Counted from the first letter of the stretch, positions 18,190-59,294 are shown. The stretch is 64,000 nucleotides of DNA from an uncultured Actinomycetota bacterium (GCA_963738695.1 CAVTXO010000012.1:40742-104741), one strand, 5' to 3'. Numbers and translations: made by a program. Notes: generated from the letters alone by a model not told the origin.

Positions 18190-18831
18190 GTGGGGAGTTT
18201 CGGGGGGATCGCCGATCCAGGACCGGTCGGACGCCGAGCTGCTCGGCGGCGCACGTCGCGGGCGATCGGTACGCCTTCGAGGAGCTGTTCCACCGCCATC
18301 ACCGGCAGCTGTACCGGCTCGCCCACATCACCAGCCGCAACCCCGAGGACGCCGCCGACGCGCTTCAGGACGCCATGCTGTCCGCGCACCGCAGCGCGCC
18401 GAGGTTTCGCCACGACGCGTCGGTCAGCAGCTGGCTGTACCGCATCGTCGTCAACGCGTGCCTGGACCGGCTGCGCCGCAACAAGTCTCACCCGACCACC
18501 GCCCTGGAGGACGACGCCTACCACGGTCGGCGATCCGACACCTCGGGTGGACACCGCGCTGGTGGTCGAACGTGCGCTCATGCGCCTGCCGGTCGAGCAG
18601 CGCGCCGCCGTCGTCGCGGTCGACATGCAGGGGTTCTCCGTCGCCGAGACCGCCCGGCTCCTCGGCGTCGCCGAGGGCACGGTCAAGAGCAGATGCTCAC
18701 GAGCGCGGGCCAAGCTCGCCGAGACGCTCGACTACTTCTCACCGGACACCGCCGCTGCGGGTCGTCGGGCTAACGACTCTGCCGAACCCTGGTGTCCGGC
18801 TGCGGTACCCGAACCAGACCGGGGCCGTTGA
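18190..18831 (+). CDS. sigM: ECF sigma factor SigM (3' end approximate; alternative stop at 18773)
   Basis: '[11 protein letters not shown]' like segment, '[17 protein letters not shown]', '[16 protein letters not shown]'; synteny murJ-sigM-trxB. Confidence 0.92.
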
Positions 18832-19063
18832 CGACGTACGACAGGCAGCCCGGGATGTTGCGGCAGGCGATGATCGCGCCCGCACTGGGTGAACCACCGA
18901 TCGCGGACGGCGGTCTGCTCGGGATCCCGCAGACTGCAAGGGACGGGTCGCCGGGCACGATGTACGGGCTGCACGCCGACGCGGCCCCAGCCCCGAGGAA
19001 CAAGCTCGTCGCGACCCCCAGTGTCCCGACGCCCAGTGTCAGCGCCGATCCGCAGGCCATCAA
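18770..19063 (-). CDS. Small secreted protein (about 97 aa, 4 Cys in mature part) ending [14 protein letters not shown]
   Basis: Hydrophobic signal peptide ending 'GAASA', then [10 protein letters not shown]...; C-terminus matches the peptides at 58464 and 59088; true start may be a few codons upstream. Confidence 0.75.
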
Positions 19064-19199
19064 CGATGCCGTCGTGAGCTCACTTCATCCATCATCCGCT
19101 TCTTCACAGCTGAATGTCGACATGTTTACAGCGAAGCTCCGGAAGCGTCGGCGATTGCCATTCCCTAGACTGCCCGCGAGGCCAACCACGGGAGTGACA

Positions 19200-19971
19200 G
19201 TGGACGACGACACGGACGGGCCGGCGCCCGCCGCGGTGCCCGTGTCGCTGCTCGCCGACCTACAGGCCGGATTGCTCGACGACGACACCGCCGCCCTGGT
19301 ACGCCGCCGCATCCGCGACGATCCCGAGACCGCCGAACGCATGGAAGCCCTCGACCGGGTCCGGCGGGATCTGGCCGACCTCGGCACCGATGCCGCGTCC
19401 GCCCCCGAGGTGCCCGCCGACGTCACCGCTCGCGTCGGCGCCGCGCTGCGCGGCGAGCCGCCCGCCACGAACCGGGTCGTCGGATCGCTCGCGGACGCTC
19501 GCCGCGGCCCACGCCGTGCGCGGGCCATCGCCCCGCGGCTCCGGATCGCCGCGGCGGTGGTCGGCTCGGCGCCGCGCTCGCGGCCGCCGGCATCGGCACG
19601 GCCATGCTGCTGCGATCGCCCCCGACCGCATGCCCAACGACGGGCCCGACCGCCGACCGCATCACCGTCTCGAAGCCGTCCGGACGGCATCCCCCTGACC
19701 GATCCGCAGCTCCTCGACCTGCTCGGGCAACCACCCGACCTGGGACCGCTTGCCGATCCGCAGCGGCGCGCGTCGTGCCTCAGCGGCCTCGGCTACCCGA
19801 CGTCGACGACCGTCCTCGGCGCGCGGCCCGTCGCCGTCTGGCGGCAGGCCCGGTGTGCTGTTGCTGCTGCCAGGCGACGCGCCGCGGGCGGTGAACGCCG
19901 TCGTGGTCGGGCTCAACTGCAGTTCGGTCGACACCGGACTGCTCGCCGAACGGGTGGTGACCCGACCATGA
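19200..19971 (+). CDS. rsmA: Anti-sigma-M factor (Rv3912/RsmA-like), frameshifted
   Basis: '[12 protein letters not shown]...RRRIRDDP', single TM, '[20 protein letters not shown]', '[10 protein letters not shown]...[10 protein letters not shown]'. Confidence 0.85.
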
Positions 19972-19993
19972 CGCGTCCCGGCAACGACCGCGG

Positions 19994-20019
19994 GGAACAG
20001 CCGGGCTTACGCTGGTGTT
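19994..20019 (+). promoter_or_regulatory. SigH/SigE-type ECF promoter upstream of trxB-trxA
   Basis: GGAAC-N18-GTT; mycobacterial trxB-trxC is a known SigH target. Confidence 0.75.
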
Positions 20020-20066
20020 ATATGCGTGCCAAACGCGGATGGCTACGCAGGGGCAGAAAGGCGGAC

Positions 20067-21002
20067 ATGACCTCCACTCCCACGGTGCATGACGTGATCA
20101 TCATCGGTTCCGGGCCTGCCGGATACACGGCGGCGGTTTACGCGGCACGCGCTCAGCTCAAGCCGCTGGTGTTCGAGGGCGTCCAGTTCGGCGGCGCCCT
20201 GATGACCACCACCGAGGTGGAGAACTACCCCGGCTTCAAGGAGGGCATCACCGGCCCCGAGCTGATGGAGGAGATGCGCGAGCAGGCCCTCCGATTCGGC
20301 GCCGACCTGCGCATGGAGGACGTCGACGAGGTGTCGCTCGACGGCCCCGTCAAGACCGTCACCGTCGGCGACGAGACCTTCCAGGCCCGCGCCGTGATCC
20401 TCGCGATGGGCGCGGCCGCGCGGCACCTCGGCGTTCCCGGCGAGCAGGAGCGCATCGGCACGGGCGTCAGCACCTGTGCCACCTGCGACGGCTTCTTCTT
20501 CCGCGACCAGGACATCGCGGTCATCGGCGGCGGCGACTCCGCGATGGAGGAGGCCATCTTCCTGACCCGGTTCGCCCGCAGCGTCACGCTGATCCACCGC
20601 CGCGAGGAGTTCCGCGCCTCCAAGATCATGCTCGAACGGGCCAAGGCCAACGAGAAGATCACCATCCTGACCAACACCGCCGTCACCGAGGTCGAGGGCG
20701 AGCCCAAGGTCACCGGTCTGCGGCTGCGCGACACCGTGACCGGCGAGGAGTCCAAGCTGGCCGTCACCGGTGTGTTCGTCGCCATCGGCCACGATCCCCG
20801 CTCGGATCTGGTCCGCGGTCAGGTCGAGCTCGACGACGAGGGCTACGTGCAGGTGGTGGGTCGCACCACCAGCACGTCGATCGACGGCGTGTTCGCCGCC
20901 GGCGACCTCGTCGACCACACCTACCGTCAGGCCATCACGGCTGCGGGCAGCGGATGTTCCGCCGCCATCGACGCCGAGCGCTGGCTCACCGACAACGACT
21001 GA
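20067..21002 (+). CDS. trxB: Thioredoxin reductase
   Basis: '[12 protein letters not shown]', 'CATCDG', '[10 protein letters not shown]', '[11 protein letters not shown]'. Confidence 0.98.
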
Positions 21003-21045
21003 CCAGCCCGTCCACCAGTCCGATTTCCAACGAAGGAGCAACCCC

Positions 21046-21379
21046 ATGAGTGACACGCAAGGCAACGGTCGCCGTCACCGACGACTCGTTCTCCGACGAC
21101 GTGCTGTCCAGCAGCACTCCGGTGCTGGTCGACTTCTGGGCCACCTGGTGCGGCCCGTGCAAGATGGTCGCGCCGGTGCTCGAGGAGATCGCCACCGAGA
21201 AGGCCGGTCAGCTGACCGTGGCCAAGATCGACGTCGACGCGAACCCCGCCACCGCACGGGACTTCCAGGTGGTGTCGATCCCGACGATGATCCTGTTCAA
21301 GGACGGCGCCGCGGTGAAGCGGATCGTCGGCGCGAAGGGCAAGGCCGCGCTGCTGCGCGAGCTCTCCGACGTCGTCTAA
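21046..21379 (+). CDS. trxA: Thioredoxin (TrxC/TrxA)
   Basis: 'DFWATWCGPCKMVAP'; AAGGAG RBS upstream. Confidence 0.97.
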
Positions 21380-21526
21380 CGACGCGGGCCGCCGGGCTCG
21401 GCGCCTGGCCTGTAGGTTTCCGAATCTTCGGGGGCGTCTGCGACAATGCTGTCCGAGGCTGTTCCGCCTGGCATTGCAATCGCCAGCGTTGAATTCGCTG
21501 CCATCCGTGACCCGAAAGGCCTGGGT

Positions 21527-22725
21527 ATGTCGAGTCTGCGTCGCGGTGACCGGGGAGGTCCGGTCACCGAGATTCGGGCCGCTCTGTCGGCCCTTGGGCT
21601 CATAGACAGCCCCGACTCGGATCTGACCACCGGCAGGCACGTCGCGCTCGACGCCTTCGACGACGAGCTCGACCAGGCGGTCCGCGCGTTCCAGCAGCAT
21701 CGCGGACTGCTGGTCGACGGCGTCGTCGGTGAGGCCACCTACCGCGCGCTCAAGGAGGCGTCCTACCGGCTCGGGGCCCGCACGCTGGCTCACCAGTTCG
21801 GCGCGCCGATGTACGGCGACGACGTCGCGACGCTGCAGGCCCGCCTGCAGGATCTCGGTTTCTACACCGGCCTGGTCGACGGACACTTCGGCCTGCAGAC
21901 GCACAACGGGCTGATGTCCTACCAACGTGAGTACGGGCTGTACCCAGACGGTATCTGCGGCCCAGAGACGTTGCGCTCCTTGTACTTTCTGGGTTCGCGG
22001 GTCACCGGCGGCTCGCTGCACGCCATCCGCGAGGAGGAACTGGTCCGGCGGTCCGGCCCGCGCCTGTCCGGCAAGCGGGTGATCGTCGATCCGGGTCGCG
22101 GCGGCGACGACCACGGCCCGATCATGCAGGGCCCGTCGGGTCCCATCAGCGAAGCAGACATCCTGTGGGACTTGGCAAGTCGCCTCGAGGGCCGGATGAC
22201 CGCCATCGGCATGGAGACGTTCCTGTCGCGGCCCGTCGGTCGCAGCCCGTCGGACGCCGAACGGGCCGACCACGGCCAACACCGTCGGCGCCGACCTCAT
22301 GATCAGCCTGCGGTGTGCCGCTCTGCCCGGGTCGGCCGCCAACGGCTTGGCGTCGTTCCACTTCGGCAACTCGCACGGCTCGGTGTCCACCATCGGCCGC
22401 AACCTCGCCGACTTCATTCAGCGAGAAGTCGTGGCACGCACCGGATTACGCGACTGCCGTACACACGGCCGGACATGGGACCTACTCCGGCTGACCCGGA
22501 TGCCGACCGTTCAGGTCGACATCGGCTACGTCACCAATCCGCACGATCGCGATCTGCTGGTGTCGCCGACAGACCCGGGACTCGATCGCCGAGGGCATCC
22601 TCGCCGCGGTGAAGCGCCTCTACCTGCTCGGCAAGAACGACCGGCCCACCGGTACGTTCACGTTCGCCGAACTGTTGGCCCACGAGCTGTCGGTCGAACA
22701 GGCCGGCCGCGCCGCCCAGGGCTGA
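21527..22725 (+). CDS. cwlM: N-acetylmuramoyl-L-alanine amidase-like peptidoglycan regulator
   Basis: Two PG-binding repeats ('VRAFQQHRGLLVDGVVG', 'YQREYGLYPDGICG'), Amidase_3-like domain, C-terminal 'DRPTGTFTFAELLAHE'. Confidence 0.95.
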
Positions 22726-22732
22726 CCGCCCG

Positions 22733-23471
22733 CTACACGCACGGGCACCGCGCCGGCACCCACCGGTCGCAGTTGGGCACTCTCCAGCAGACGCTCCAGC
22801 GCCGCCTCGACGTCGGCCTTCCAGCCCAGCCCCTGCTCCAGTTCGAGGCGCAGCCGCGGGAAGTAGCGATGCGGGGCGACGACCTCGAACCCGACGTCGC
22901 CGAGGAAGTCCGCGTCGACGATGCACTGGTCGACCGAGCAGTCGCCGAGTACCTCGACCGCGGCGCGCAGTTCGGGCGGCACCAGCCGGGGATCGCCGAG
23001 TTCGGCCGCTTCGGCCGTCCGACCGAACGCCTCCAACGCCCGACACCGCGGCGGACGAGATCCCCCACCACCGCGGCGATCAGACCGCGCGGCAGTCCGT
23101 CGGTGTCGTCGGCGCATCGATGCCGATCGAGGTCAGCAGAACGGCGTCGGCACTCACCGGGCCGCTGGGGAACAGCCGGGCCCGCGGCACCGCGCGCGGC
23201 GGCGCGTAGAACGCATACCCGAGGCACGGCGCATCGTCCGACGACGACGAGCAGCTCGCCGTCCGGGCCGCACTGCACGGCGAGCTGACCGCACGACCCC
23301 CACTCGAGCATCACCATCGACAGCCAGGCTTCCTTCTCGAACTCCGGGTCGGCGAGGTGATCGTCACCCGGCAGCGTCGACGGGATCGACTTCCCAGAAC
23401 ACGCAGCGCCGCGCATGCTTGGGCAGCTGCTCGAATGCTTCGAGCCGCAGCGGCGTGATTCGTGCCGACAC
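22733..23471 (-). CDS. GNAT-like protein (Rv3916c-like), frameshifted
   Basis: 'SARITPLRLEAFEQLPKHARRCVFWE', 'EFEKEAWLSMVMLEWGSCGQ', 'PRLRLELEQGLGWKADVEAALERLL'. Confidence 0.88.
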
Positions 23472-23694
23472 TAGACTCCCCGGTTCTCAGACGGTCCAGA
23501 AATCATCGGTTGCCCCTCCAGGATAGGAGAGCCCGCCGCGGCGGTCACCCGCCTCGGCATCGACGCATCACCGCACACGCTCGGCTCGCGTCCGAATCCG
23601 ATTGGTGCGCAACGTATTTCCTCCTCGGAGCGGCGATTGCGAGCCGCTCGAGCGGCCGATGTGTCACAGTGACGTAATTACGCCGTGTGGTTGG

Positions 23695-24714
23695 TCACGG
23701 CTTCGTCGCGTTCATCAGGTCCACTATTCGCTGCAGGTCGTCGACCGACCCGAACTCCACCACGATCTTGCCCTTCCGTTTGCCGAGGCTCACCGTGACC
23801 CGGGTGTCGAACGCCGACGACAGCGTTCTCAGCAACGTCCTGGAGCCCCGGCATCTGAATCGGCTTGCGGCGCGGCGCCGGGCGGTGCGGTGACATCCTC
23901 CCGGTTGGCCAGCGTGACCGCCTCCTCCGTCGCGCGGACGGACAGCCCCTCCGCGACGATCCGGGCGGCCAGCTCCTCCTGCTTCTCCGATCCGCCCTCG
24001 AGGGCCAGCAGTGCGCGCGCGTGCCCGGCGGACAGCACTCCGGCCGCCACCCGGCGCTGCACCGCGATCGGCAGCCGCATCAACCGGATCATGTTGGTGA
24101 TCACCGGTCGCGAGCGGCCGATGCGGACGGCGAGCTCGTCGTGCGTCACGCCGAACTCGTCGAGCAGCTGCTGATAGGCGGCCGCCTCTTCCAACGGGTT
24201 CAGCTGTGCCCGGTGGATGTTCTCGAGGAGGGCGTCGCGCAGCATGCTGTCGTCGGCGGTCTCGCGGACGATCGACGGGATGGTCGGCGAGTCCGGCCTC
24301 CTGGGCGGCCCGCCACCGCCGCTCCCCCATGACGAGTTGATACCGCGGCGCGCTGCCGTCCGATTCGACCGCGCGCACGACGATCGGCTGCATGAGGCCG
24401 AACTCGCGGATCGAGTGCACGAGCTCGGCCAGCGCGTCACCGTCGAACACCTGCCGCGGCTGCCGCGGGTTCGGTTCGATGGCCGCCGGATCGATCTCCC
24501 GGTACACCGCGCCGACGTCGGTGACGGCGGCTGCGGGGGCGCCGCCCAGACAGACGTCGGCCGCCGCGTCACCCATCCGCGGGCCCATGTCGTCCGGGCT
24601 CGTCGCCTCGGCGGGCCCGGTCGGAATCAGCGATGCGAGTCCGCGGCCAAGGCCGCTCTTCTTGCGTGACGGCTGCGTCATCGGTGCTGTCTCCTCTTTC
24701 GCGGAAGTGCTCAT
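23695..24714 (-). CDS. parB: Chromosome partitioning protein ParB (start at 24681 or at the in-frame repeat-derived ATG 24714)
   Basis: '[11 protein letters not shown]', '[11 protein letters not shown]', 'GERRWRA', '[17 protein letters not shown]'. Confidence 0.96.
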
Positions 24715-24806
24715 CGGTGCTGTCTCCTCTTCGCGCAAGCGCTCATCGGTGCTGTCTCCTCTTCGCGCAAGCGCTCATCGGTGCTGTCTGCTCTTCGCGC
24801 AAGCGC

Positions 24807-24815
<9 letters not shown>
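24679..24815 (-). repeat. MIRU-like tandem repeat: three 32-bp units plus one 33-bp unit, each starting with ATG
   Basis: Minus-strand unit ATGAGCGCTTGCGCGAAGAGGAGACAGCACCG; ATG starts at 24810, 24778, 24746, 24714, then 24681. Confidence 0.92.
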
Positions 24816-26523
<1,708 letters not shown>

Positions 26524-26581
26524 CCCTCCGGATCCACCATCGGGCCGCCGCTCGGAACTACATCGATGTAACTCGGCGCCG

Positions 26582-27106
26582 TCAATCTGAGCAGCACGAC
26601 GACGCGCCGAGACGGCTCGGCACCTTCGCTCTCGCTGTGCACGCCGTCGACGGCGGCCACCGCGTCGTGCACGATCTTGCGCTCGAACGGCGTCATCGGA
26701 TCGAGCTGCTCACGCTCACCGCTCTCCAGCACGCGCCGCGCCACGCGGTCACCCAACGCGGCCAGCTCGTCACGGCGACGGCGACGCCACTTCGCGATGT
26801 CCAGCATCAGCCGGCTGCGCTCACCCGTCTTCTGATGCACCGCGAGCCGCGTCAGTTCCTGGAGCGCGTCGAGCACCTCGCCCTTGCGTCCGACCAGCTT
26901 GTTCAGATCCTCGCCGCCGTCGATGCTGACGATCGCGCGGTCCCCCTCGACGTCGAGGTCGATGTCGCCGTCGAAGTCCAGCAGGTCGAGCAGCTCCTCG
27001 AGATAGTCGCCGGCGATCTCGCCCTCGGCCACCAATCGATCTTCGAGCTCCTCGGTCTTCGGCTCATCGTCGTCGCGCTGCGTTCGGTCGTATCAGCTTC
27101 TGTCAT
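26582..27106 (-). CDS. jag: Jag/EloR (KH + R3H) RNA-binding protein
   Basis: 'LVGRKGEVLDALQELTRLAV', 'PMTPFERKIVHDAV', 'SESEGAEPSRRVVV'. Confidence 0.93.
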
Positions 27107-27166
27107 GTCCGTCCTTCCTTCTCATCCACCGGTCGGCCACGGGCCGTGCTCCGCGGTTGGGTCCGG

Positions 27167-28963: not shown

Positions 28964-28996
28964 CTGCGCTAAACCCTGCTGCGGATCAGAACAGCA

Positions 28997-29656: not shown

Positions 29657-29712
29657 TTGGGCTTCGTCTATTCGGCCGTCTCCTCAAGCGGGCCTCGAGG
29701 GGGTACGTCTCA

Positions 29713-35796: not shown

Positions 35797-37873
<2,077 letters not shown>

Positions 37874-37926
37874 CGCCGTTCGAATCCGAACCAATCCCGA
37901 GCTGCTCATAGACGAGCGAGGAGCAC

Positions 37927-40441
37927 ATGACAGACACCACCCTGCCGCCCGGGCGACGACGGCGCGACCACCGACCGCATCGAACCGGTCGACATCCAGC
38001 AGGAGATGCAGCGCAGCTACATCGACTACGCGATGAGCGTCATCGTCGGCCGCGCACTGCCCGAGGTTCGTGACGGTCTCAAGCCGGTGCACCGCCGCGT
38101 GCTGTACGCGATGTACGACTCGGGTTTCCGGCCGGACCGCGGTCACGCGAAATCCGCACGCTCCGTTGCCGAGACGATGGGCAACTATCACCCGCACGGC
38201 GACTCGTCGATCTACGACACCCTGGTCCGGATGGCCCAGCCGTGGTCGCTGCGCTACCCGCTCGTCGACGGGCAGGGCAACTTCGGCTCGCCGGGCAACG
38301 ATCCACCGGCCGCGATGAGGTACACGGAAGCGCGCCTCACTCCGCTGGCGATGGAGATGCTGCGCGAAATCGACGAGGAGACAGTCGATTTCATCCCGAA
38401 CTACGACGGCCGGGTGCAGGAGCCGACCGTCCTGCCCAGCCGGTTCCCCAACCTGTTGGCCAACGGCTCGGGCGGTATCGCGGTCGGCATGGCCACCAAC
38501 ATGCCGCCGCACAACCTCCGCGAGCTCGTCCGAGGCGGTGTTCTGGTGCCTCGACAACTTCGAGGCCGACGAAGAGGCCACGCTGGCGGCGGTCACCGAG
38601 CGGGTCAAGGGTCCTGACTTCCCGACCTACGGTTTGATCGTTGGCTCGCAGGGGATTCACGACGCCTACACGACGGGCCGCGGATCCATCCGCATGCGCG
38701 GCGTCGTCGAGATCGAGGAGGACTCGCAAGGGCCGCACGCTGCTGGTCATCACCGAGCTGCCCTACCAGGTCAACCACGACAACTTCATCACCTCGATCG
38801 CCGACCAGGTCCGCGACGGCAAGCTCGCCGGCATCTCCAACATCGAGGACCAGGGCAGCGACCGGGTCGGCATGCGCATCGTCGTCGAGGTCAAGCGCGA
38901 CGCCGTGGCGAAGGTGGTGCTGAACAACCTCTACAAGCACACCCAGCTGCAGACCAGCTTCGGCGCGAACATGCTGTCGATCGTCGACGGCGTCCCGCGC
39001 ACGCTGCGCATCGACCAGCTGATCCGGCTGTACGTGGTGCACCAGTTGGACGTCATCGTCCGCCGGACCACCTACCGGTTGCGCAAGGCCAACGAGCGGG
39101 CCCACATCTTGCGCGGCCTGGTCAAGGCGCTCGACGCGCTCGACGAGGTCATCGCGCTGATCCGGGCGTCGGAGACCGTCGACGTCGCCCGCGCAGGGCC
39201 TGATCGAGTTGCTCGACATCGACGACATCCAGGCGCAGGCGATCCTCGACATGCAGCTGCGGCGCCTCGCCGCCCTGGAACGCCAGCGCATCGTCGACGA
39301 TCTGGCCAAGATCGAGGCCGGAGATCGCCGACCTCGAGGACATCCTGGCCAAGCCGGAGCGTCAGCGCGCGATCGTGCACGACGAGCTCGCCGAGCTCGT
39401 CGAGAAGTACGGCGACGACCGCCGCACCCGGATCATCCCCGCCGACGGCGACGTCGCCGACGAGGATCTGATCGCGCGCGAAGAGGTGGTCGTCACGATC
39501 ACCGAGACCGGCTACGCCAAGCGGACCAAGTCCGATCTGTACCGCAGCCAGAAGCGCGGCGGCAAGGGCGTGCAGGGCGCCGGCCTCAAGCAGGACGACA
39601 TCGTCCGGCACTTCTTCGTCAGCTCGACCCACGACTGGATCCTGTTCTTCACCACGCAGGGCCGGGTGTACCGGGCGAAGGCCTACGAGCTGCCGGAGGC
39701 GTCGCGGACGGCGCGCGGCCAGCACGTCGCGAACCTGCTGGCCTTCCAGCCCGAGGAGCGCATCGCGCAGGTCATCCAGATCAAGAGCTACGAGGACGCG
39801 CCGTACCTGGTGCTCGCCACCCGCAACGGTCTGGTGAAGAAGTCCAAGCTGACCGACTTCGACTCCAACCGGTCGGGCGGCATCGTCGCGGTGAACCTGC
39901 GCGACGGCGACGAACTGGTCGGCGCGGTGCTGTGCTCCGCCGAGGAGGACCTGCTGCTGGTGTCGGCCAAGGGGCAGTCGATCCGGTTCTCGGCGACCGA
40001 CGAGGCGCTGCGTCCGATGGGCCGGGCCACCTCGGGCGTGCAGGGCATGCGGTTCAACGAGGAGGACCAGCTGCTGTCGCTCAACGTCGTCCGCGAGGGC
40101 ACGTATCTGCTGGTCGCGACGTCGGGCGGCTACGCCAAGCGCACCGCGATCGAGGAGTACACCGACGCAGGGCCGCGGCGGCAAGGGCATCCTCACCATC
40201 CAGTACGACCGCAGGCGTGGCACTCTGGTCGGAGCGTTGATCGTCGACGACGACACCGAGCTGTACGCCATCACCTCCGGAGGGGGTGTCATCCGGACCG
40301 GGCACGTCAGGTGCGCAAGGCCGGACGGCAAACCAAGGGGGTGCGCTTGATGAACCTGGGCGAGGGCGACACACTGGTTGCCGTTGCGCGCAACGCCGAC
40401 GAGGACGCTGTCACGAAGACGACGAGTCCGACGAGACGTAA
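37927..40441 (+). CDS. gyrA: DNA gyrase subunit A (3' end approximate)
   Basis: '[11 protein letters not shown]', 'AAMRYTEAR', GyrA box 'QKRGGKG'. Confidence 0.98.
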
Positions 40442-40489
40442 CGCGACACCGATTGCCGCCGGCAGTCGGCCTGAGCGAAGGAGCCGTAG

Positions 40490-41384
40490 GTGAGTTCACC
40501 GAACGAGCCGGGATACCCGCGCACGGGTGACGGGCCCGGTAGCGCCAACGGCTCGGGCGGCGGCCGGCGACGCACAGCGGCGACGTTCCGCCGTGGCAGC
40601 GGGGCGCGTCGCCGGGTCCGCGCCGCGCCGCGTCCAGCCCGAGACCGCCCGAGGGTGGACGGGCCGGCTGCCGCAGCCGGCCACACCCCCGGCGTCGACG
40701 CCCGGCATCAACCGGTTCATCTCGGGTGGTCCGCGACGCCCGCCGGCTCCGCCGGCTCCGCCCGCGGGAGTCCGGCCCCGCGCGTGAGTCGGCCCGGCCC
40801 GCGAGCCTGGCCCGGCCCGCGAGCCGGACTCCGCGCCGCCGCGCGGCGACCGCTCCGAGACGGTTCGTCCCGAGGCCTACGCCAGCGAGCTGCCGGACCT
40901 CTCGGGCCCGATCCCCGCGGCGCCGCAGCGCAAGCCGCGTCGAACGGACTGCCGCCGAGCCGGCTACCCGGTCGGCCGCGCCGGCGGTCCGTACGCCAGC
41001 GTGCCGCCGGCCGGTCCGCAGGGCCCGGTGCGCGCGAGCATGCAGATCCGGCGGTTCGATCCGTGGAGCGTGCTGAAGGTCTCACTGGTGCTGTCGGTGG
41101 CGCTGTTCTTCGTGTGGATGATCGCCGTCGCGTTCCTGTACCTGGTGCTCGGCGGCATGGGCGTGTGGAGCAAGCTCAACAGCAACGTCGGCGACCTGCT
41201 CACCAGCGCGAGCGGCAGCGGCGGCGAATTGGTCTCCAGCGGCACCATCTTCGGCGGCGCGGCGCTGATCGGACTGGTCAACATCGTGCTGCTGACCGCG
41301 ATGGCAACGTGCGGTGCGTTCATCTACAACCTCACCACCGACATCGTCGGCGGCATCGAGGTGACCCTCGCCGACCGGGACTGA
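40490..41384 (+). CDS. DUF3566 membrane protein (Rv0007-like)
   Basis: Pro-rich N-terminus; '[18 protein letters not shown]', '[21 protein letters not shown]'. Confidence 0.9.
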
Positions 41385-43685: not shown

Positions 43686-43693
43686 ACGGCTGA

Positions 43694-46133: not shown

Positions 46134-48012
<1,879 letters not shown>

Positions 48013-48016
<4 letters not shown>

Positions 48017-50789: not shown

Positions 50790-52207
50790 ACCTTCTCGAT
50801 CACCTCCGTGCTCGGCGGCGGCGATCGGCGTGGTGTTGGGCCGGCTGGTGCGTGATCGGACGACGCGCGGAGTGCGAGATGCGGATCAGGATCGCCAGCA
50901 GCACGTAGTTGGCGAGCAGCGACGAGCCGCCGTAGGACATCCACGGGGTGGTCAGGCCGGTGAGCGGGATCAGCTTCGTCACGCCGCCGACGACGATGAA
51001 CAGCTGGATCGCCAGCGTCGAGGCCAGACCGGCGGCCAGCAGCTTGCCGAAGCTGTCGCGCACGGCGATCGCGGTGCGCAGGCCGCGGATGATGAGGATG
51101 GTGTAGAGCATCAGCACGCCTGCCAGACCGACGAGGCCGAGCTCCTCGCCGATCGCGGCGATGATGAAGTCGGTGGACGCCGCGGGCACCGTGCCGGGCT
51201 GGCCGTTGCCGAGACCGGTGCCGAAGATGCCGCCGGTGGCGAAGCTGAACAACGACTGCACCATCTGGTAGCCGGCACCGTCGGGATCGGCGAACGGGTC
51301 GAGCCAGTTCTGCGACGCGAATCTGGACGTGCGCGAACGCGTAGTACGCCACGACGCTGCCCGCGGCGAACAGCGTGAGTCCGATGAGGACCCAGCTGAT
51401 CCGGTCGGTGGCGATGTAGACCATCACCAGGAACGACGCGTACAGCAGCAGCGAGGTGCCGAGGTCCTTCTCGAACACCATCACGCCGACCGAGGCGATC
51501 CACGCCGCCAGCAGCGGCGCGAGGTCGCGGGGCCGGGGCAGGTCCATGCCGAGCACGTGCTTGCCCGCGCTGGTGAACAGGCTGCGCTTGGCCACCAGTA
51601 CCGCGGCGAAGAAGATCAGCAGCAGGATCTTGGAGAACTCGGCGGGCTGAATCGAGAAGCCGGGCAAGCGAATCCAGATCTTCGCGCCGTTCTCCTCGGA
51701 CATCGAGCGGGCAGCATCGCCGGAATGACCAGCAGCACCAGGCCGGTCAGGCCGCACACGTAGCCGTAGCGGGCCAGGATCCGGTGGTCGCTCAGGAAGA
51801 TCACGACGAGTGAGAAGCGCGACGACGCCGACCAGCGTCCACAGCATCTGCTGGTTGGCGCTCGGGCCCGCGGGCGGCACCCGTGACCAGGGGGCCCGCG
51901 GCGAGGTCGAGGCGGTGAATCATGACCAGTCCCAAGCCATTCAGCAGCGCGACGACGGGAAGCAGCAGCGGATCGGCGTACGGCGCGAAGCGTCGGACCG
52001 CCAGGTGGGCGCCGGCGAACAGCGCGACGTAGGCGACCGCGTACTGGACCAGATCCCAGCGCAGACCCCTGCTCCTGATTGGCCTCGACGATGAGCAGGG
52101 CCACCATCGTGATCAAGCGCGGCGAACCCGAGCAGGAACAGTTCGGCGTTGCGCCGGTTGGGCATTGGCGGTATGACGGTGACCGGGGCCTGCGGTTGGG
52201 TCGTCAT
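50786..52207 (-). CDS. rodA: SEDS protein RodA
   Basis: 'QPAEFSKI', 'EKDLGT', '[13 protein letters not shown]', '[16 protein letters not shown]'. Confidence 0.95.
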
Positions 52208-53772
52208 GACGCCGCCCGGCAAGTTGGTGCCCGGCTCCTGCGGTGGGGGCGGCAGCGCCGTCACGGTCGGCGACGGCGCGGGCGCCTGCGTCGGGGCTGG
52301 GGCGGGCGGGGGTTCCGGCGGCGACTCCGGCGGCGGTGCGGGACGGTGACGGTGGTGGGCACCTCGGGCGCCGAAGGATCCGTAGGCACGCGGTGGGGGC
52401 GTCGGCGACGGAGGGGCGCCCGGCGAAGGCGGAGTGGCCGGCGGCGGTGGGATGGCGCTGCTGGTCGTCGTGGGTCGTGGTGGTCGGGGTGGGCGGCGCG
52501 CAGAGCGGTAGCAGCGAGGACTGGCCGAGCTTCCTTGCAGCTGACGGATGGCGTCGTCGACGCTGCCTGCGGGCAGCCCCGCCGCCACCTGAGCGCGTTC
52601 GGATTCCCGTAGATCGCCGACCTTGAGCAGCTGGCAGCCGGAGCGGTCGTCGTCGGACGCCGATGATCTTCAGCTCGTCGCGGTCGTCGAGGCAGGCGAT
52701 GCGGAATGGCTGCTGCAGCGGCATTCCGAGGAACGAGCCCTGCACGCCGCGCATGATGTAGACCGCGCCGTCGTGCTCGGCGACGTAGTAGTTGCTGCGA
52801 ATCACGGTGCGGCCGATGGCGAGGCCGGCGAGCACGAGCAGGACCAGAGCAGGATGCGGCGTAGATGCATCCTGCGGCGCGATCGCGGCTTGCGCGCCGG
52901 CGATTCCGGTTCGGCCGAAGGACGTTTCGGCGGCGCGGCAGCGACGCGACGCGGATTGAACGCCGACGCGCGGCCCGCGGCGGTGTTGGGCGGGGCGGTC
53001 TGGTCGTCGTCGCCCGACACGGCGCCCGCCAGGATCGGCTGGGTCTGACCGTAGCCGTAGTCGACGACGTCGGCGACGACGACGGTGACGTTGTCGGGTC
53101 CACCGCCGCGGAGCGCCAATTCGATGAGCCGGTCGGCACTTTCGGCGACGTCGGGGATCTGCAGCGCGTCCATGGATGGTGTCGTGGCTGACCGGGATCG
53201 GACAGCCCGTCGGAGCACAGCAGGTAGCGGTCGCCGACGCGGGCCTCGCGCACGATCAGCGTCGGCTCGACCTCGTGCCCGGTGAGCGCGCGCATGATCA
53301 GCGACCGCTGCGGGTGGCTGTGCGCTTCCTCGGCGGTGATGCGGCCCTCGTCGACCAGGGTCTGGACGAACGTGTCGTCCTTGGTGATCTGGTTGAGTTC
53401 GCCGTCGCGGAGCAGATAGCCGCGCGAGTCACCGATGTGGACGAGGCCAAGTCTGTTGCCCGCGAACAGGATTGCGGTGAGCGTGGTGCCCATGCCCTCG
53501 AGTTCGGGGTCGGCCTCGACGTGGGCGGCGATCGCGGCGTTGCCCTCGTGGACGGCCTCGTTGAGCTGGCTGAGGAGGTCACCACCCGGCTCGTCGTCGT
53601 CGAGGTGCGCGAGCGCGGCGATCACCAATTGGGAGGCGACCTCGCCCGCGGCGTGACCGCCCATGCCGTCGGCCAGGGCCAGCAGCCGGGCGCCGGCGTA
53701 GACCGAGTCTTCGTTGTTGGCGCGGACCAGGCCGCGGTCGCTGCGCGCCGCGTAGCGGAGGACGAGCGTCAC
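52204..53772 (-). CDS. pstP: PP2C-type Ser/Thr phosphatase
   Basis: 'GLVRANNEDS', 'ADGMGGHAAGEVAS', 'LLCSDGL', 'GGPDNVTVV'; TM and Pro-rich tail. Confidence 0.96.
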
Positions 53773-54235
53773 GGGCGCAGCTCGATTACCGTCTTGCCGA
53801 TTCGCACCGGCGTGCCCATCGGAACCCTAACCGCCGTCGTCACCTTCGCCCTGTCGAGGTATGTACCGTTGGTCGATCCTAGGTCTTCGACGTACCATTC
53901 GGCGCCCCGCTGGGACAGGCGGGCATGCCGTGTCGACGCGTAGTCGTCGGTGAGCACCAGGGTCGAGTCGTCGGCGCGGCCGATCAGCACGGGCTGGGCG
54001 CCCAACGTGATCCGCGTGCCGGCCAGCGCGCCCTCGGTGACGACAGTTGACGGGCGATGTGCCGGCGCTGCCGACTGGGCAGCAGGGTGCCGCGCAGCGC
54101 CAGGCCGCGCTTGACCATCACGGCGCCGGTCGGGGCGTAGATGTCGGTGCGCAGGATCCGCAGCACCGACCAGATGAACAGCCACAACAGCAACAGGAAA
54201 CCGACGCGCGTCAGCTGCAGAACTAGCCCCTGCAT
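53769..54235 (-). CDS. fhaB: FHA-domain protein FhaB/FipA
   Basis: N-terminal TM 'MQGLVLQLTRVGFLLLLW'; FHA motifs 'IGR', 'STRHA', 'DLGSTNGT'. Confidence 0.94.
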
Positions 54236-54418
54236 CTGACGTCCTCTCCGTCACCGTCCCGATGCCGTCGCGTCGGCGCCACCGGACCGGTTTCCGGGTC
54301 GCTTCGCTCCTGCCCGCCGAACGGTCTGGCTACGTTCGGCAACGTCACGATACTTGGGCGCGAACGGCGTGAGGGCGAAGCGAACAGCTTGCACCCGGGC
54401 TGTGACCGGCCCGGGCCC

Positions 54419-55883
54419 TCAGTGAACGCGGACGATGATCTCGGAGTGGCCCAGCCGGATCACGTCGCCGTCGGCCAGCTGCCATTCCTGCACCGGCGCG
54501 TTGTTCACCGTGGTGCCGTTCGTCGAGTTGAGGTCCGACAGCAGGGCGACCTGGCCGTCCCAGCGGATCTCCAGATGCCGACGTGACACGCCGGTGTCCG
54601 GGAGCCGGAACTGAGCGTCCTGGCCGCGACCGATGACGTTGGCGCCCTCGCGCAGCTGGTAGGTCCGGCCGCTGCCGTCGTCGAGCTGCAGGGTGACGTT
54701 GGCGCCGGCAGCACCGTAACCGCCGCCGTACCCGGCGGGCGGCGCGGCGGGCTGCTGGCCGTAGTCGTACCCGGCGGGCTGGCCGTAGCCGCGCCTCGCC
54801 GTAGCCGGGCTGCCCCTGCTGGCCGTAGTCGTAACCCGCGGGCGGCTGCGCGTAGTCCTGGCGTGCCGTAGGCCTGCCCTGCGCCGTACCCGGCCTGGTT
54901 CGCCGTAGCCGCCCTGCTCGGGATAGCCGCCCTGGTCGGGGTAACCGCCCTGCTCCGGGTAGCCGCCCTGGTCGGGGTAGGCGGGACGGCGCCGTCGGGC
55001 CTGCCGTAGCTCCGTCGTGACGCCCGGCGGGGCGGCGGGCGGGCGGCCGTAGTCGTAGTCACCCTGCGGGCTGGCCGTAGCCCGCCGGGAGCACCTGGGG
55101 GCGGGCCGTGGGAGGGCCGTAGCCGGCCGGGGCCGGGCGGACCCTGGTCGGGGTAGCCGCCACCGGGCGGCGGGCCGTACCCGGCGGGCGGGCGCTGCTC
55201 GTAGGACGGCGGCGGATAGCCCTGCGTCCGGGTAGCCACCCTGCTCGGGCTAGCCGCCCTGGTCGTAGGGCGCCTGCCGGGCGGCGGGTAGCCGGGCGCC
55301 GGAGCGCCCTGCGGCGGGTAACCGCCCTGCTCGGGCGGGTAGGCGCACGGGGCTCTTCGCCCTGGCGCCCGTAGTCGTAGTACTCGTCGCCGGGCTGCCC
55401 TTGTCCCTGGCCGCCGCGGTAGCTCGGGTTGTCGCTCATCGGGGGTACTCCTGGTTCTGCGGTGTGCGCGCGGTCTGGTGCGTGCCGGGGCGGGTTCGCC
55501 TCGTGGTCGAGTCGGGGTTGACCGCTCCACGTGTGCGGAACTGGCCGGTGTGCAGGTTCGGTGACGATTCGAATCTGACGACCACCTCACCATACGTTTG
55601 CCACCCTTGGTCATGGATGTAACCCTCCAGGTATCTGGCAAAAGTGGTCGAACTGAGGTCTGGGTCGGCGCTCACCTTCTGATGGTCGGGCACACTGAGG
55701 GTAATGACGTAGTCGTTCGGGGCCAAAATCCGACCGCCCCCGACTTCGCGCGCTCCGGCCTCCGCTTCACGCTGCAAGCATCGCCTCGACCTCTTGCGGC
55801 ACGATCGGACCACCGAATACGCGGGCGAAGGCATCGCCGACGGTGGACTCGAGCTTGCGCTCGAAGCGGCCGACAAGGCCCAT
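54419..55883 (-). CDS. fhaA: FhaA (DUF3662 domain, GYPxQG-repeat linker, FHA domain)
   Basis: 'MGLVGRFERKLESTVGDAFARVF', 'LAPNDY', low-complexity G/Y/P/Q repeats, C-terminal FHA 'SRRH...NSTNGT'. Confidence 0.93.
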
Positions 55884-56116
55884 GTCACCGCCCACCTCGC
55901 TCGTCGTCGTTCCCGGTCCGGCGTCACGCGGCCCTGCGTGTCGCGGAGCCGCGATGACCCGTACTCATGGTATCGGCCCAGCACCGACGCAACGGGACCA
56001 ACAGAACTCTGAGAATCGGATCACGGCAGGTCAAGGGCGCCGCTGCGGTTCGCACCGGTGCGATCTGCGCGGTTGGGGAGTGGGCCGGTGTGCGTGATAG
56101 GCTCCCCCGGTTGTTG

Positions 56117-56199
56117 GGGCGAGTGGCGGAATGGCAGACGCGCTGGCTTCAGGTGCCAGTGTCCTTCGGGACGTGGGGGTTCAAGTCCCCCTTCGCCCA
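56117..56199 (+). tRNA. leuT: tRNA-Leu(CAG)
   Basis: GGGCGAGTGGCGGAATGG...TTCAGGT anticodon loop, long variable arm GTCCTTCGGGAC, GGTTCAAGTCC...TTCGCCCA. Confidence 0.97.
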
Positions 56200-56234
56200 C
56201 AATTGTGATGAGTCGAGTCATCGGTTACAGAGAA

Positions 56235-56261
56235 TCCCGGCCTTGGGCCGGGTTTTTTGTT
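56235..56261 (+). terminator. Intrinsic terminator after tRNA-Leu
   Basis: CCCGGCC-TTG-GGCCGGG followed by TTTTTTGTT. Confidence 0.85.
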
Positions 56262-56750
56262 GGTTGCGCCATCGGGCGGAAATGGCGCCTGCTCCGACTG
56301 GTCGACCGCGATGATTGGCCGATGCGAGATCCCGCTCTGCGGTTGTGCCGTGGCGATTCCCGGGCGCTGGCCGTTTCTCGCTGGCGGGTCTCCTCCTGTG
56401 GATGTGAAGTGGATGGACGGGATGCCGATGGCTCTCGAGATGATCTCGCGGCGTAGGTGGCGCGAACGAGTTCATCCGCTGGGTCGAGGATGCGAACAAC
56501 AAGGGACGACCCGAAGCGGCGCCTTCGTCGGCCTCAGGAGGAGCTCGAGGTAGGTCAAGGCCCGGCACCGCGAACGCGCCGGCGGGTAGGCGCCCGCTCC
56601 GGGCATGAGTCGTCCGAAGAGAACCAGCCAGGGGAATAGTTCGGTACGCGCCAAGGATATATAGGTTGCCTATATTCGAGACGGCGCCGGCAGCATGACC
56701 CCTGTAGAGGACTCTGATGCTCGGCGTGGTGCAGGTTTCTGGAGGTCGGG

Positions 56751-57518
56751 GTGGCGATTGGTGTTGCACCAAAGGGTGTTCAGCATCCGCGCGTGCTGGT
56801 GGTCGACGACGACACGAACGTCGTGAACCTGCTGTCGACGAGCCTGAGTTTCCAGGGCTTCGAGGTCGATACCGCTACCAACGGGCCCACCGCCCTGGAC
56901 CAGGCCCACAAGGTACGCCCGGACGCGGTGGTCCTCGATGTCACGTTGCCCGGTATCGATGGCTTCGGAGTGCTGCGCCGACTGCGTGCTGACCGCATCG
57001 ACACCCCGGTGGTGTTCCTCACCGGGCGCGACTCGTTGCAAGACAGGATCACCGGCCTGTCCCTTGGCGGCGACGATTACATCACCAAGCCGTTCAGCCT
57101 CGAAGAGGTGGTCGCCCGGCTGCGCGCGATTCTGCGCCGCACCGGTGTGGGTGCCCAAAAGCCCTTCACTGCCCGGCTCACCTTCGCCGACATCGAACTC
57201 GACGAACGCACCCGCGAGGTGTCGAGGGCGGGCGTGCCAGTGTCGCTCTCGCCGACGGAGTTCAGGCTGCTGCGCTACATGGTCATCAACGCCGGAACAG
57301 TGCTCAGCAAGCAGAGGATCCTCAACCACGTGTGGCGCTACAACTTCAGTGGCAACGATGGCTGCGTGGAGTGCTATATCTCCTACCTGCGCCGCAAGAT
57401 CGACACTGACGTCGACAAGCGCCTTCTACACACACTGCGCGGTGTGGGATATGTCCTGCGCGAACCACGGCAACAAGATCAACGATCTTCCTGCACGGGC
57501 GCTGCTCGAGAGGCGTAG
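56751..57518 (+). CDS. Orphan OmpR/PhoP-family response regulator
   Basis: 'VLVVDDD', phosphoacceptor 'VLDVTLP', 'DDYITKPF', winged helix 'LSPTEFRLLRY...YISYLRRKID...HTLRGVGY'; no kinase adjacent. Confidence 0.93.
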   Translation: MAIGVAPKGVQHPRVLVVDDDTNVVNLLSTSLSFQGFEVDTATNGPTALDQAHKVRPDAVVLDVTLPGIDGFGVLRRLRADRIDTPVVFLTGRDSLQDRITGLSLGGDDYITKPFSLEEVVARLRAILRRTGVGAQKPFTARLTFADIELDERTREVSRAGVPVSLSPTEFRLLRYMVINAGTVLSKQRILNHVWRYNFSGNDGCVECYISYLRRKIDTDVDKRLLHTLRGVGYVLREPRQQDQRSSCTGAAREA

Positions 57519-57849
57519 CCACGGCCGATGGCGTCCCGCATCGGTTCGGTGGTGTGGCTGTAGAGCGCAGTCTCCCCTTCCCAGTCGGGACGTACCAAAC
57601 GCAACGCCCGCTGCCCGGCTCCCGGGGCCTCTATGTCGCCCCGCAGCTTCCGAAATAGTCGGACAGGTAGTGACCCACCTCACCCTTGGCATTCACTGTG
57701 ATATTGCCTACCGCAACGGGGATGGCCGTCGCCGCCTTCCGCAACTGGGCCCGAAGGACAAAGGGATGGGTCTGCTCGACGACTTCACCCCGCTGCGTCG
57801 GGTGGTCCACGGACGGGTGATGAGACGACACACACCAGGAAGGAATTCG

Positions 57850-58365
57850 ATGAAGCATTCACTCCAAGCTGGCGTGCGGACACTTGTGGTCGTAGGCGTA
57901 GGACTCGCCACAGCGCCCATGTCTGCCGCCGACCCTGGTGAGCTGCCGCCGGATCCCGACTCCCCGGCGATCGCAACAGCTGAGCACGACATGTCCGCCG
58001 CCGAGACTGCCTGCGCGCAGTTCGCCGGTGGTCTGGACCTCGCCGCCAGTAGCTACTCGGATTTCGCTGACGTCACATCCGGGAACGAATGGAGGTATGG
58101 CGATCCTGCGGTGGCCAGTGCAAACGTAACCGGTAGGACTGCGTTGCGGGAGGCTGCGGCAGCCGCGATGCACGCTTCGGCAATCCCTGGTCTACAACCT
58201 GAGATCGCGGGTCCAATGCGTCGATGGTCAGTTAGGGCGATGAAGCTCATCCTCATCATGGGAGTGCGCGGCAACAACGAGATGACGAATGAAGCGGCAT
58301 CTGAGCTCAATGACGATGCTTACAAGGCCCAAACCGCGTGTGCGGATGTCGTCACGCAGGGCTGA
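57850..58365 (+). CDS. Secreted hypothetical protein (171 aa, two Cys)
   Basis: AGGAAGGA RBS, ATG, signal peptide ending SAA-DP, helical Ala-rich body with C near each end. Confidence 0.75.
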   Translation: MKHSLQAGVRTLVVVGVGLATAPMSAADPGELPPDPDSPAIATAEHDMSAAETACAQFAGGLDLAASSYSDFADVTSGNEWRYGDPAVASANVTGRTALREAAAAAMHASAIPGLQPEIAGPMRRWSVRAMKLILIMGVRGNNEMTNEAASELNDDAYKAQTACADVVTQG

Positions 58366-58419
58366 CGCGGGCCAGTCCGGCCGGGCGGTGCGCGCGGAAA
58401 TCCGATCCGCCACAACAAG

Positions 58420-58449
58420 AAGAGGGGCACCCGATTGGGTGCCCCTCTT
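58420..58449 (-). terminator. Hairpin terminator (possibly bidirectional) downstream of peptide gene A
   Basis: AAGAGGGGCACCC-GATT-GGGTGCCCCTCTT; T-rich flanks on both strands. Confidence 0.85.
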
Positions 58450-58463
58450 GTTGGTTCGCTGCG

Positions 58464-58670
58464 TCAGCGGCTCTGGTGGACGCTGGTGTCGACCTTCGGC
58501 ACGTTCACCTGGGGGCCGATCTGGTCGAGCCACACGTGGTGGTCGACGCCGGCCGAGATGGTGGTCGACGACACGGGGCCGACGGCTGCCTGCGCGGCCG
58601 GGGCGGCGATGCCCATGACGCCCGCAACCAGTCCGCTGGCGATGATGGTGGCAAATCCAAACTTCTTCAC
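58464..58670 (-). CDS. Small secreted peptide A (68 aa) ending VNVPKVDTSVHQSR
   Basis: AGAGGAG RBS, GTG start, Sec signal MKKFGF...AQA, mature part with DHHVW. Confidence 0.85.
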   Translation of the reverse strand: MKKFGFATIIASGLVAGVMGIAAPAAQAAVGPVSSTTISAGVDHHVWLDQIGPQVNVPKVDTSVHQSR

Positions 58671-58780
58671 TTCGGTGACTCCTCTTGCGTTGTTTCCTGC
58701 GTTCGAACCGTCGCGCGTACGTCTCGGTTCGGTTTTGTTCGTCCGGTTCTCCGTGCTGCTCGTTCCGGTCTGATCTACAA

Positions 58781-58806
58781 AACCAACAGGTCAGGGGATT
58801 AATTCC
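58781..58806 (-). promoter_or_regulatory. Putative ECF-sigma promoter for peptide A
   Basis: Minus-strand GGAAT-N18-GTT, the same geometry as the trxB promoter; conserved in copy B. Confidence 0.55.
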
Positions 58807-59044
58807 GCTGGCAGTAATTGACCGGCCGTTGGCAGGAATCACGCGGTGGTATGGCAGAACTGCCAGGTCGGCGCAACGGCCGGCTGACGATCGAACGCAG
58901 CTGGGCACGGCTACTGCAACCGCTTCTAGCAAAGGGTCTCGCCGCCCGTAGACGCGGCGCGCCGTGCCAGGTCGCACCGAGCGCGTGCTGTTGTCGCCTT
59001 GCAGCCGAACCTAATTGGACTTGTCTCGCCCGACTTCATGCAAA

Positions 59045-59073
59045 AGAAGGGCACCCGATTGGGTGCCCCTCTT
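59045..59073 (-). terminator. Hairpin terminator downstream of peptide gene B
   Basis: AAGAAGGGCACCC-GATT-GGGTGCCCCTCTT. Confidence 0.8.
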
Positions 59074-59087
59074 GTTGGTTCGCTGTG

Positions 59088-59294
59088 TCAGCGGCTCTGA
59101 TGCACGGTGGTGTCGACCTGCGGCACGTTCACGTGCGGGGCGATCTGGTCGAGCCACGCGTGGTGGTCGACGTCGGCCGAGATGGTGGTCGACGACACGG
59201 GGAGGACGGCTGCCAGTGCGGCGGGGGCGGTGAGACCCAGGGCGCCTGCAACCAGTCCGCTGGCGATGATGGTGGCAAATCCGAACTTCTTCAT
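59088..59294 (-). CDS. Small secreted peptide B (68 aa) ending VNVPQVDTTVHQSR
   Basis: AGAGGAG RBS, ATG, Sec signal ending ALA; 56 of 68 residues identical to peptide A by manual count. Confidence 0.87.
   Translation of the reverse strand: MKKFGFATIIASGLVAGALGLTAPAALAAVLPVSSTTISADVDHHAWLDQIAPHVNVPQVDTTVHQSR

Follow-up and report, generated by a model that had tools for sequence, protein, structure and literature searches.

A stretch of 64,000 nucleotides (nt) from an uncultured Actinomycetota bacterium, a soil mycobacterium (GCA_963738695.1, CAVTXO010000012.1:40742-104741; hereafter the window) raises the question why small secreted proteins encoded at distant loci should end in the same peptide. 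Three open reading frames (ORFs), one for a four-cysteine (4-Cys) protein at the sigM locus (Fam1) and two for short peptides some 40 kb away (Fam2, copies A and B; Table 1), terminate in V-x-V-P-x-x-D-T-x-V-x-Q-S-R directly followed by the stop codon. A preliminary description of this DNA had reported the shared ending, and the sequence confirms it: the three ORFs agree in nine of their last 14 residues. Scanning the entire 7.87-Mb genome (12 contigs) in all six frames showed the tail at a stop codon in these three ORFs only. The tail is the end of a C-terminal peptide module of approximately 22 residues, which is real, conserved, previously undescribed and restricted to part of the genus Mycobacterium.

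Genome-wide pattern scans and profile searches argue against a chance resemblance. The degenerate DNA pattern VP..DT.V.(Q/H)S. plus stop codon, run on whole genomes, matched 116 times in the window's genus, where 75 of the 401 genomes carry it, with one to four tailed carriers per genome, and the same pattern reversed, which served as control, gave none. An order-wide sample, likewise of 401 genomes, contained the tail in this genus only (0 of 367 genomes of 96 other genera) and a single match to the reversed pattern. The invariant tail residues are encoded by three to four synonymous codons (serine by AGC, AGT and TCG), and this variety shows that selection acts on the peptide rather than on DNA or RNA; all three stop codons are used. 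When 1.84 billion representative proteins were searched with a 34-column profile of the tail (A1; E ≤ 1e-3), 67 clusters matched, which we classify as 44 Fam2-like, 13 4-Cys, nine with other or decayed bodies and one spurious. The latter is an eukaryote-like protein with seven NVPSPDSSVQQTS repeats (P0231), whose match is not C-terminal and was rejected as a chance resemblance. Apart from this protein and evident gene-call fusions, the matches are 49-150 amino acids long, and in nearly all of them the tail is the extreme C-terminus (a few run 2-40 residues past it). According to the alignments, the conserved unit exceeds the 14 tail residues, in front of which it includes a Gly/Pro position and a short aromatic or hydrophobic segment (in the 4-Cys proteins C-L-S-x-V-V-N or L-Y, in the peptides W-L-D-x-I). 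The layout of the module is a short helix, Gly/Pro, an extended V-x-V-P-x-(V/P)-D-T-x-V-x-Q-S-x and the stop codon, the final residue being R, H, Q or P. Named hosts in the databases are Mycolicibacterium conceptionense, senegalense, peregrinum, lutetiense, porcinum and hodleri and M. yunnanensis, and all entries are annotated as 'hypothetical protein'. No Pfam or NCBIfam model matches the carriers, a profile search of the PDB returned nothing at E ≤ 1 for Fam1 or Fam2, and the exact tail strings are absent from the text of 8.4 million papers. The motif thus matches no described domain, in line with the initial impression that no described mycobacterial system has it. Plasmid and phage collections gave no match, and Rfam yielded only sub-threshold, terminator-like matches on the peptide loci.

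There are two main kinds of carrier, a superfamily of 4-Cys proteins and Cys-less, module-only peptides, plus a few decayed intermediates. Fam1 has homologues in 130 clusters, typically of 103-106 amino acids and all with a signal peptide and four invariant cysteines, and these always lie between sigM and rsmA; the ORF picked out in the preliminary description is therefore a conserved gene. Many Fam1 members have the entire tail; elsewhere it has partly decayed (for example to ...PRPGSTIRHSQ), and some members, such as P0107 of M. grossiae, lack it. A tail-less 4-Cys paralogue also exists in the window's own genome (contig C5, about 1069634-1069930, minus strand) and ends in ...IIACRHHPGCLSWYVNNP-stop. 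The first 30 pattern matches inspected were all Fam1 or Fam2, and 20 further, odd-looking matches led to other 4-Cys bodies, namely Fam1b, Fam1c and one more. After trimming of signal peptides and tails, hhalign connected the bodies of Fam1 and Fam1b (probability 99.3%, E 2e-20) and those of Fam1b and Fam1c (94%, E 1e-7), and found no direct link between Fam1 and Fam1c. These two homologies make the 4-Cys carriers one superfamily. The bodies had been described as unrelated, which is correct for the contrast between 4-Cys proteins and Cys-less peptides but not among the 4-Cys proteins themselves. As initially proposed, the motif occurs beyond the full-length homologues of any single family. Intermediates with one or no Cys pair are represented by P0185, P0196, P0240 and P0247.

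The Cys-less Fam2 peptides form 64 clusters (55-81 amino acids), nearly all with the tail, and the mature part of the shortest precursors (55 amino acids) comprises about 28 residues. Members P0151, P0153, P0160 and P0163 of the Fam2 search extend 2-10 residues beyond the usual end. In certain relatives the tail of Fam2 is shortened or altered (...VDTSVHG-stop, ...VDMTAR-stop and ...VHGSR-stop; loci L086, L090 and L095), which shows ongoing decay or variation of the module in these lineages. In its promoter, leader, ribosome-binding region and signal peptide, Fam2 shares DNA-level homology with a gene elsewhere in the same genome (C8:1380061-1380528; locus L081:262-729). This third copy of the cassette encodes a 99-amino-acid secreted protein with another body and no tail, and the similarity to Fam2 stops at the signal-peptidase site. 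The tail-less 99-amino-acid family comprises 907 clusters, all mycobacterial and annotated as 'hypothetical'. In relatives (loci L082-L101) the cassette drives at least three kinds of small secreted product: Fam2, the 99-amino-acid family and a peptide of about 60 amino acids that ends in ...GTIDxIQRD. Fam2 thus looks like a chimera of a 5' export and expression cassette and the 3' module. The module has moved between gene contexts, but only between few of them. The elements of the cassette are a pair of CTGCCA direct repeats, GGAAT-N18-GTT and a leader that spans about 100 nt and is conserved in part. The genes that it drives look like a compact stress-secretome regulon with a putative repeat-binding regulator.

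With homologous 4-Cys bodies at hand, the tail might merely be the best-conserved structural element of one ancient, fast-diverging family, for instance a final strand that packs on the disulfide-bonded body, and would then have no function that is separate or portable; the Cys-less peptides would be decayed remnants of this family. Besides the demonstrable homology of the 4-Cys bodies, the intermediates that have one or no Cys pair and the gradual decay of the tail within Fam1 would fit such common descent. However, no class of carrier is more numerous or better conserved than the Cys-less peptides (44 of the 67 representative clusters), which have their own conserved promoter and terminator, are present in RNA libraries, and keep the module under purifying selection without a body to pack on. 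This independent conservation in Cys-less peptides argues against the tail as the last strand of one fold. Moreover, the 5' half of Fam2 stems from a different gene family, and Fam1 members such as P0107 and the C5 paralogue persist without the tail. Common descent as the sole explanation is therefore unlikely in our judgement, but deserves to be kept in mind.

The features of the window are compiled in Table 1. The GC contents at third codon positions (0.82 for Fam1, 0.91 for copy A and 0.87 for copy B) fit real genes of a high-GC organism. The two Fam2 genes, each encoding 68 amino acids, are a tandem duplication, and either copy comes with an upstream region of its own, a ribosome-binding site rich in purines and a hairpin that resembles a terminator. 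In a close relative (G243), one Fam1 and two tandem Fam2 genes likewise lie about 40 kb apart on a single contig. Sec-type signal peptides had been assigned to all three products. Judged by eye, they are clear in both Fam2 peptides (MKKFGF..., ending AxA), but the 97-residue Fam1 ORF as assembled lacks the basic n-region present in its homologues. An upstream ATG at 19092 opens a reading of 10 residues that then runs into a stop codon, one frame off, and the 88%-identical homologue P0001 has MNEMRSRRLL in frame at the corresponding 5' end. Thus, the start of Fam1 is uncertain, and a 1-nt indel near 19063-19070 is suspected in the assembly. The reading frame also shifts repeatedly in rsmA (19120-19900), in a Zn lipoprotease gene (59536-61000) and in the gyrB/gyrA region (37000-40500). 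The assembly, at a genome completeness of 77%, seems to carry many indel errors, and ORF boundaries in the window need caution.

Table 1. Genes, tails and predicted regulatory elements of the two loci (positions counted from the first nucleotide of the window).
Feature	Position	Strand	Detail
Fam1, small secreted 4-Cys protein at the sigM locus	18770-19063	minus	97 amino acids as assembled, probably about 106
Fam1 tail	18770-18814	minus	14 codons + TAG; ORF/sequence reading, genome pattern scans
Fam1, probable true 5' end	19063-19092	minus	out of frame in the assembly; compared with homologue P0001
sigM	18190-18831	plus	3' end overlapped by 3' end of Fam1
Fam2 copy A	58464-58670	minus	68-amino-acid precursor: signal peptide, Ser/Thr linker, DHHVWLDQIGPQ, then tail
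Fam2 copy A tail	58464-58508	minus	VNVPKVDTSVHQSR + TGA
Fam2 copy B	59088-59294	minus	68-amino-acid precursor, architecture as in copy A
Fam2 copy B tail	59088-59132	minus	VNVPQVDTTVHQSR + TGA
Copy A promoter cassette	58781-58838	minus	repeats at 58838-58830 and 58814-58809
Copy A promoter core	58806-58781	minus	-35 GGAAT 58806-58802, -10 GTT 58783-58781
Copy B promoter cassette	59405-59462	minus	repeats TTCCTGCCA 59462-59454 and CTGCCA 59438-59433
Copy B promoter core	59430-59405	minus	-35 GGAAT 59430-59426, 18-nt spacer, -10 GTT 59407-59405
Intrinsic-terminator-like hairpin 3' of copy A	58424-58445	minus	same hairpin as 3' of copy B
Intrinsic-terminator-like hairpin 3' of copy B	59048-59069	minus	GGGGCACCC-AATC-GGGTGCCC, then T-rich run

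The upstream regions indicate when some of the carriers may be made. In front of 27 Fam2 genes from many species lie two direct CTGCCA repeats about 21 base pairs apart, followed by GGAAT, an 18-nt spacer and GTT, and GGGAAT-N19-GTT is found upstream of Fam1 in L049, L042 and L023. The consensus of the sigma factor SigH is GGAAT-N18-19-GTT, and a T at -31 is typical of SigH over SigE (PMC10012870). The Fam2 genes and the Fam1 genes of relatives thus have SigH-type promoters (-35 GGAA(T/C), spacer of 18-19 nt, -10 GTT). The -35 consensus of SigM is GGAACCG in M. abscessus and M. smegmatis, and ESX-type substrates are listed in the SigM regulon table (PMC13491425). A SigM-dependent promoter was rejected, as GGAACCG occurs upstream of neither Fam1 nor Fam2, and a promoter common to all tail genes is ruled out by the different upstream regions of Fam1b and Fam1c. 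Contigs of soil metatranscriptomes span the peptide genes (four runs from three studies; examples are 59085-59295 and 59082-59386). Their summed word depth reaches hundreds to thousands on the conserved parts and is zero on the spacers; the contigs derive from relatives, and uncovered parts of the stretch carry no weight. One of them stops at 59386, some 12 nt before it would reach the predicted start of the transcript, which is a weak hint only.

Structure predictions bear on whether the module folds or assembles. For the mature Fam2 peptide, AlphaFold2 (40 rows) predicted one short helix of six residues (HHAWLD) and an extended tail but no tertiary structure, with a predicted template modelling score (pTM) of 0.18; the last ten residues received the highest local confidence (predicted local distance difference test, pLDDT, 83). 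The Fam1 model is of low confidence (mean pLDDT 62, pTM 0.37); in it, the second Cys pair is surrounded by two short helices, and the tail is coil. As a polymerisation element, the Val-rich tail would drive self-assembly into fibres or surface layers, as in curli, chaplins or pilins. Its V-x-V ... V-D-T-x-V pattern is compatible with beta strands, and ESM features place Fam1 weakly near the mycobacterial pilin family (0.84, a lead only), yet the module is polar overall and has no repeat structure, and the pilin family went undetected by hmmscan. Self-assembly is thus a highly improbable function. A complex prediction with four copies of the mature peptide scored 0.02, below the cut-off, and bears neither way on self-association.

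The explanation that we favour, tentatively and at somewhat less than an even chance, is that the module is an exposed linear recognition peptide: the active part of its carriers, made from stress-type promoters and read by an extracytoplasmic partner. After export and cleavage of the signal peptide, it would form no folded domain but stay exposed and linear with a free C-terminus, and one conserved extracytoplasmic partner encoded elsewhere in the genome (a binding protein, a protease or a receptor) would recognise it. Being the active part rather than a disposable sorting tag, the module could exist on its own, which would explain why the module-only peptide is the commonest form; that the commonest carrier is nearly the module alone argues in turn against a disposable tag. 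That the module hardly varies between species speaks against a classical pheromone. Given the SigH-type promoters of the peptide genes and of the sigM-locus gene in relatives, the module would be released into the envelope under stress (thiol-oxidative or heat stress). Among the roles listed in the preliminary description, which ranged from sorting and anchoring to the active moiety of a peptide signal, the latter is in our view the better half.

Several observations weigh against such a recognition peptide. No partner gene is conserved beside any carrier in the neighbourhoods examined, and the one shared partner is purely postulated. The upstream region of the window's own Fam1 has no clear -10 element, and Fam1b and Fam1c have other upstream regions, which lack a SigH-type promoter. 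The variable last residue and the extensions of 2-10 residues weaken a strict requirement for a free C-terminus, and truncated tails occur in some relatives (L086, L090). Co-occurrence of the carriers speaks for the recognition peptide, in that Fam2 is present in 15 of the 20 genomes that have a tailed 4-Cys protein versus 55 of 381 other genomes; the genomes are not phylogenetically independent, and this co-occurrence could reflect their shared ancestry. Finally, the metatranscriptome contigs are compatible with strong expression of the Fam2 family in soil, but contigs of RNA libraries cannot prove transcription.

The position of Fam1 offers a candidate route by which the module might act. 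Fam1 lies on the opposite strand between the extracytoplasmic function (ECF) sigma factor gene sigM and the anti-sigma factor gene rsmA (L046, L047, L049, L050, L042, L039), upstream of trxB-trxC-cwlM, and extends with its 3' end up to or into the end of sigM. Where the two genes overlap, sigM encodes a C-terminal extension of poor conservation, and no overlap exists in L046; the overlap is thus not the cause of the tail's conservation. As Fam1 converges on sigM, any sigM-rsmA co-transcript runs antisense through it. In this setting, the module recalls the C-terminal peptides of outer-membrane proteins that activate DegS (YxF recognised by a PDZ domain, leading to RseA cleavage), which are likewise exposed C-terminal ligands of exported proteins, and the parallel extends to a carrier gene placed between sigma and anti-sigma factor genes. 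Trimmed of its last four residues, the tail would end in D-T-x-V, a canonical class-I PDZ-ligand pattern. The module could be a stress alarm peptide: SigH-type promoters would fill the envelope with module-only peptides and tailed 4-Cys proteins, and a PDZ-bearing protease or a receptor would read D-T-x-V and signal on, for example through cleavage of a membrane anti-sigma factor such as RsmA. The DegS-activating peptides differ in that they end in aromatic-x-Phe with a free carboxylate and the tail in the non-aromatic Q-S-(R/H/Q/P); in addition, no PDZ protein is implicated, and the tail persists where RsmA is short, soluble and without an extracytoplasmic domain. RsmA is of full length (PF27063) in the window, L049, L042 and L039. 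In L018, L020, L036 and L046 it is reduced to the soluble N-terminal part without membrane segment, and there the tail of Fam1 is kept. The tail as ligand of the extracytoplasmic domain of RsmA was therefore rejected as a general explanation, and the alarm-peptide version is, all told, improbable. The two RsmA forms are exemplified by a 252-amino-acid membrane protein with an RsmA_C domain (L049:5123-5881) and by soluble proteins of 90-119 amino acids with the anti-sigma N-terminal part only (L046:5569-5841, L047:5538-5897).

The neighbourhoods of the other carriers are diverse. Fam2 genes are free-standing in surroundings that vary between species, and the neighbours of Fam1b and Fam1c are unrelated (ABC-2 transporter, OtsA, ammonium transporter, ferredoxin). 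A gene for an LpqM-like Zn lipoprotease (lipobox, HEYGH) lies immediately upstream of Fam2 in the window and, at a distance of about 4.5 kb, also upstream of it in L044/L045. Such an enzyme, or one resembling a sortase, might remove the tail or link it to the envelope, so that the module would be a sorting, anchoring or processing signal. A C-terminal motif on Sec-exported proteins with different bodies is indeed what the signals of sortases, exosortases and rhombosortases (LPXTG, PEP-CTERM, GlyGly-CTERM) and the C-terminal domain of the type IX secretion system have in common with the tail. In the sortase-type signals, however, the motif is followed by a hydrophobic membrane-spanning stretch and a basic cluster. 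The tail lacks both: it ends one residue after Q-S, and its last 14 residues are polar or Val and contain no hydrophobic stretch. Sortase-type systems also serve many varied cargoes per genome, whereas the one to four carriers of the module never exceed 150 amino acids, and module-only peptides would have nothing to sort. The type IX domain differs as well, being a folded beta-sandwich of 70-100 residues instead of about 22 residues predicted as short helix and coil. A gene for a sorting enzyme was not found in the carrier neighbourhoods examined; the search for sortases did not extend to whole genomes. Fam2 has no such protease gene beside it in Mycolicibacterium sp. 050158, nor in most of its other upstream contexts. 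As the adjacency is confined to the window's lineage, the LpqM-like protease was rejected as a dedicated partner. Both the classical sorting or anchoring signal and the link to this protease, as initially envisaged, thus lose their footing, and a sorting role of any kind is very unlikely.

Alternatively, the carriers may be exported signalling pro-peptides resembling those of the Phr/RRNPP type in Firmicutes. An extracellular protease would free the tail, which would then be sensed or re-imported and feed back on expression. Like Phr/RRNPP precursors, which are tiny, Sec-type, conserved in their C-terminal part and often encoded by duplicated genes, the very small Fam2 precursors (49-68 amino acids) have a signal peptide (by eye), the conserved part exactly at the stop codon and a tandem gene duplication. 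Also in favour are their complex and strongly conserved promoter, in which an ECF-type core is preceded by a pair of direct repeats of the kind that response regulators typically bind, and the fact that an orphan OmpR-type regulator and the Zn lipoprotein protease are encoded nearby in the window. The expected companion genes are missing, however. Phr/RRNPP systems have an adjacent gene for a receptor of the tetratricopeptide-repeat type (a regulator or a phosphatase), and none is found among the Pfam-listed neighbours of Fam2 in L043, L044 and L045; more generally, no receptor, transporter or protease gene is conserved beside the peptide genes in other species. Furthermore, the conserved part of Phr/RRNPP peptides spans 5-10 residues and known pheromones diversify into specificity groups, whereas the module spans 14-22 residues and is almost invariant across many species. 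In another departure, it also ends the larger 4-Cys proteins, which have other promoters, and its hosts are Actinomycetota. A signalling pro-peptide is thus an unlikely but respectable alternative to the recognition peptide. The OmpR-type regulator (Response_reg + Trans_reg_C; 56760-57515, plus strand) is convergent to the peptide genes, as is a gene for a 171-amino-acid secreted protein without Pfam match (57850-58365, plus strand). The CTGCCA repeats may be bound by this regulator; no such neighbour of Fam2 is found in other species.

One uncharacterised family resembles some of the carriers. The 'intersectin-EH binding protein Ibp1 family' / DUF7155 (PF23710) comprises small secreted proteins of actinobacteria that contain cysteines; it is nearest to the 4-Cys bodies by protein-language-model features (0.90-0.95), which is a lead only, and shares with the 4-Cys carriers size, signal peptide and phylum. 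None of DUF7155, Pilin_Mycobact (PF26380) and CDGP (PF24238) was detected in Fam1, Fam1b, Fam1c or Fam2 (hmmscan, E ≤ 1), so that the resemblance to these three families is limited to language-model features; for 'intersectin-EH binding protein', the literature examined yielded only an entry in a microarray table, MSMEG_5887. The tail fits none of the known kinds of C-terminal signal.

We know of no established peptide signalling system in mycobacteria, nor of any C-terminal peptide motif that has been described there as common to several Sec-exported proteins. The module is sharply defined, under selection and limited to a subset of environmental, fast-growing mycobacteria, and it is abundant in contigs of soil RNA libraries and coupled to stress-type promoters. 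Along with it, a promoter, leader and signal-peptide cassette that drives several unrelated small secreted peptides was uncovered. The minimal form of the module, about 28 residues, is easily synthesised, which makes a search for its partner directly feasible. The identity of this partner would reveal a new signalling route or else a new mechanism by which small proteins are directed to the mycobacterial envelope or kept there. If the module is a stress alarm peptide, it would constitute the first peptide-based extracytoplasmic signalling system in mycobacteria.

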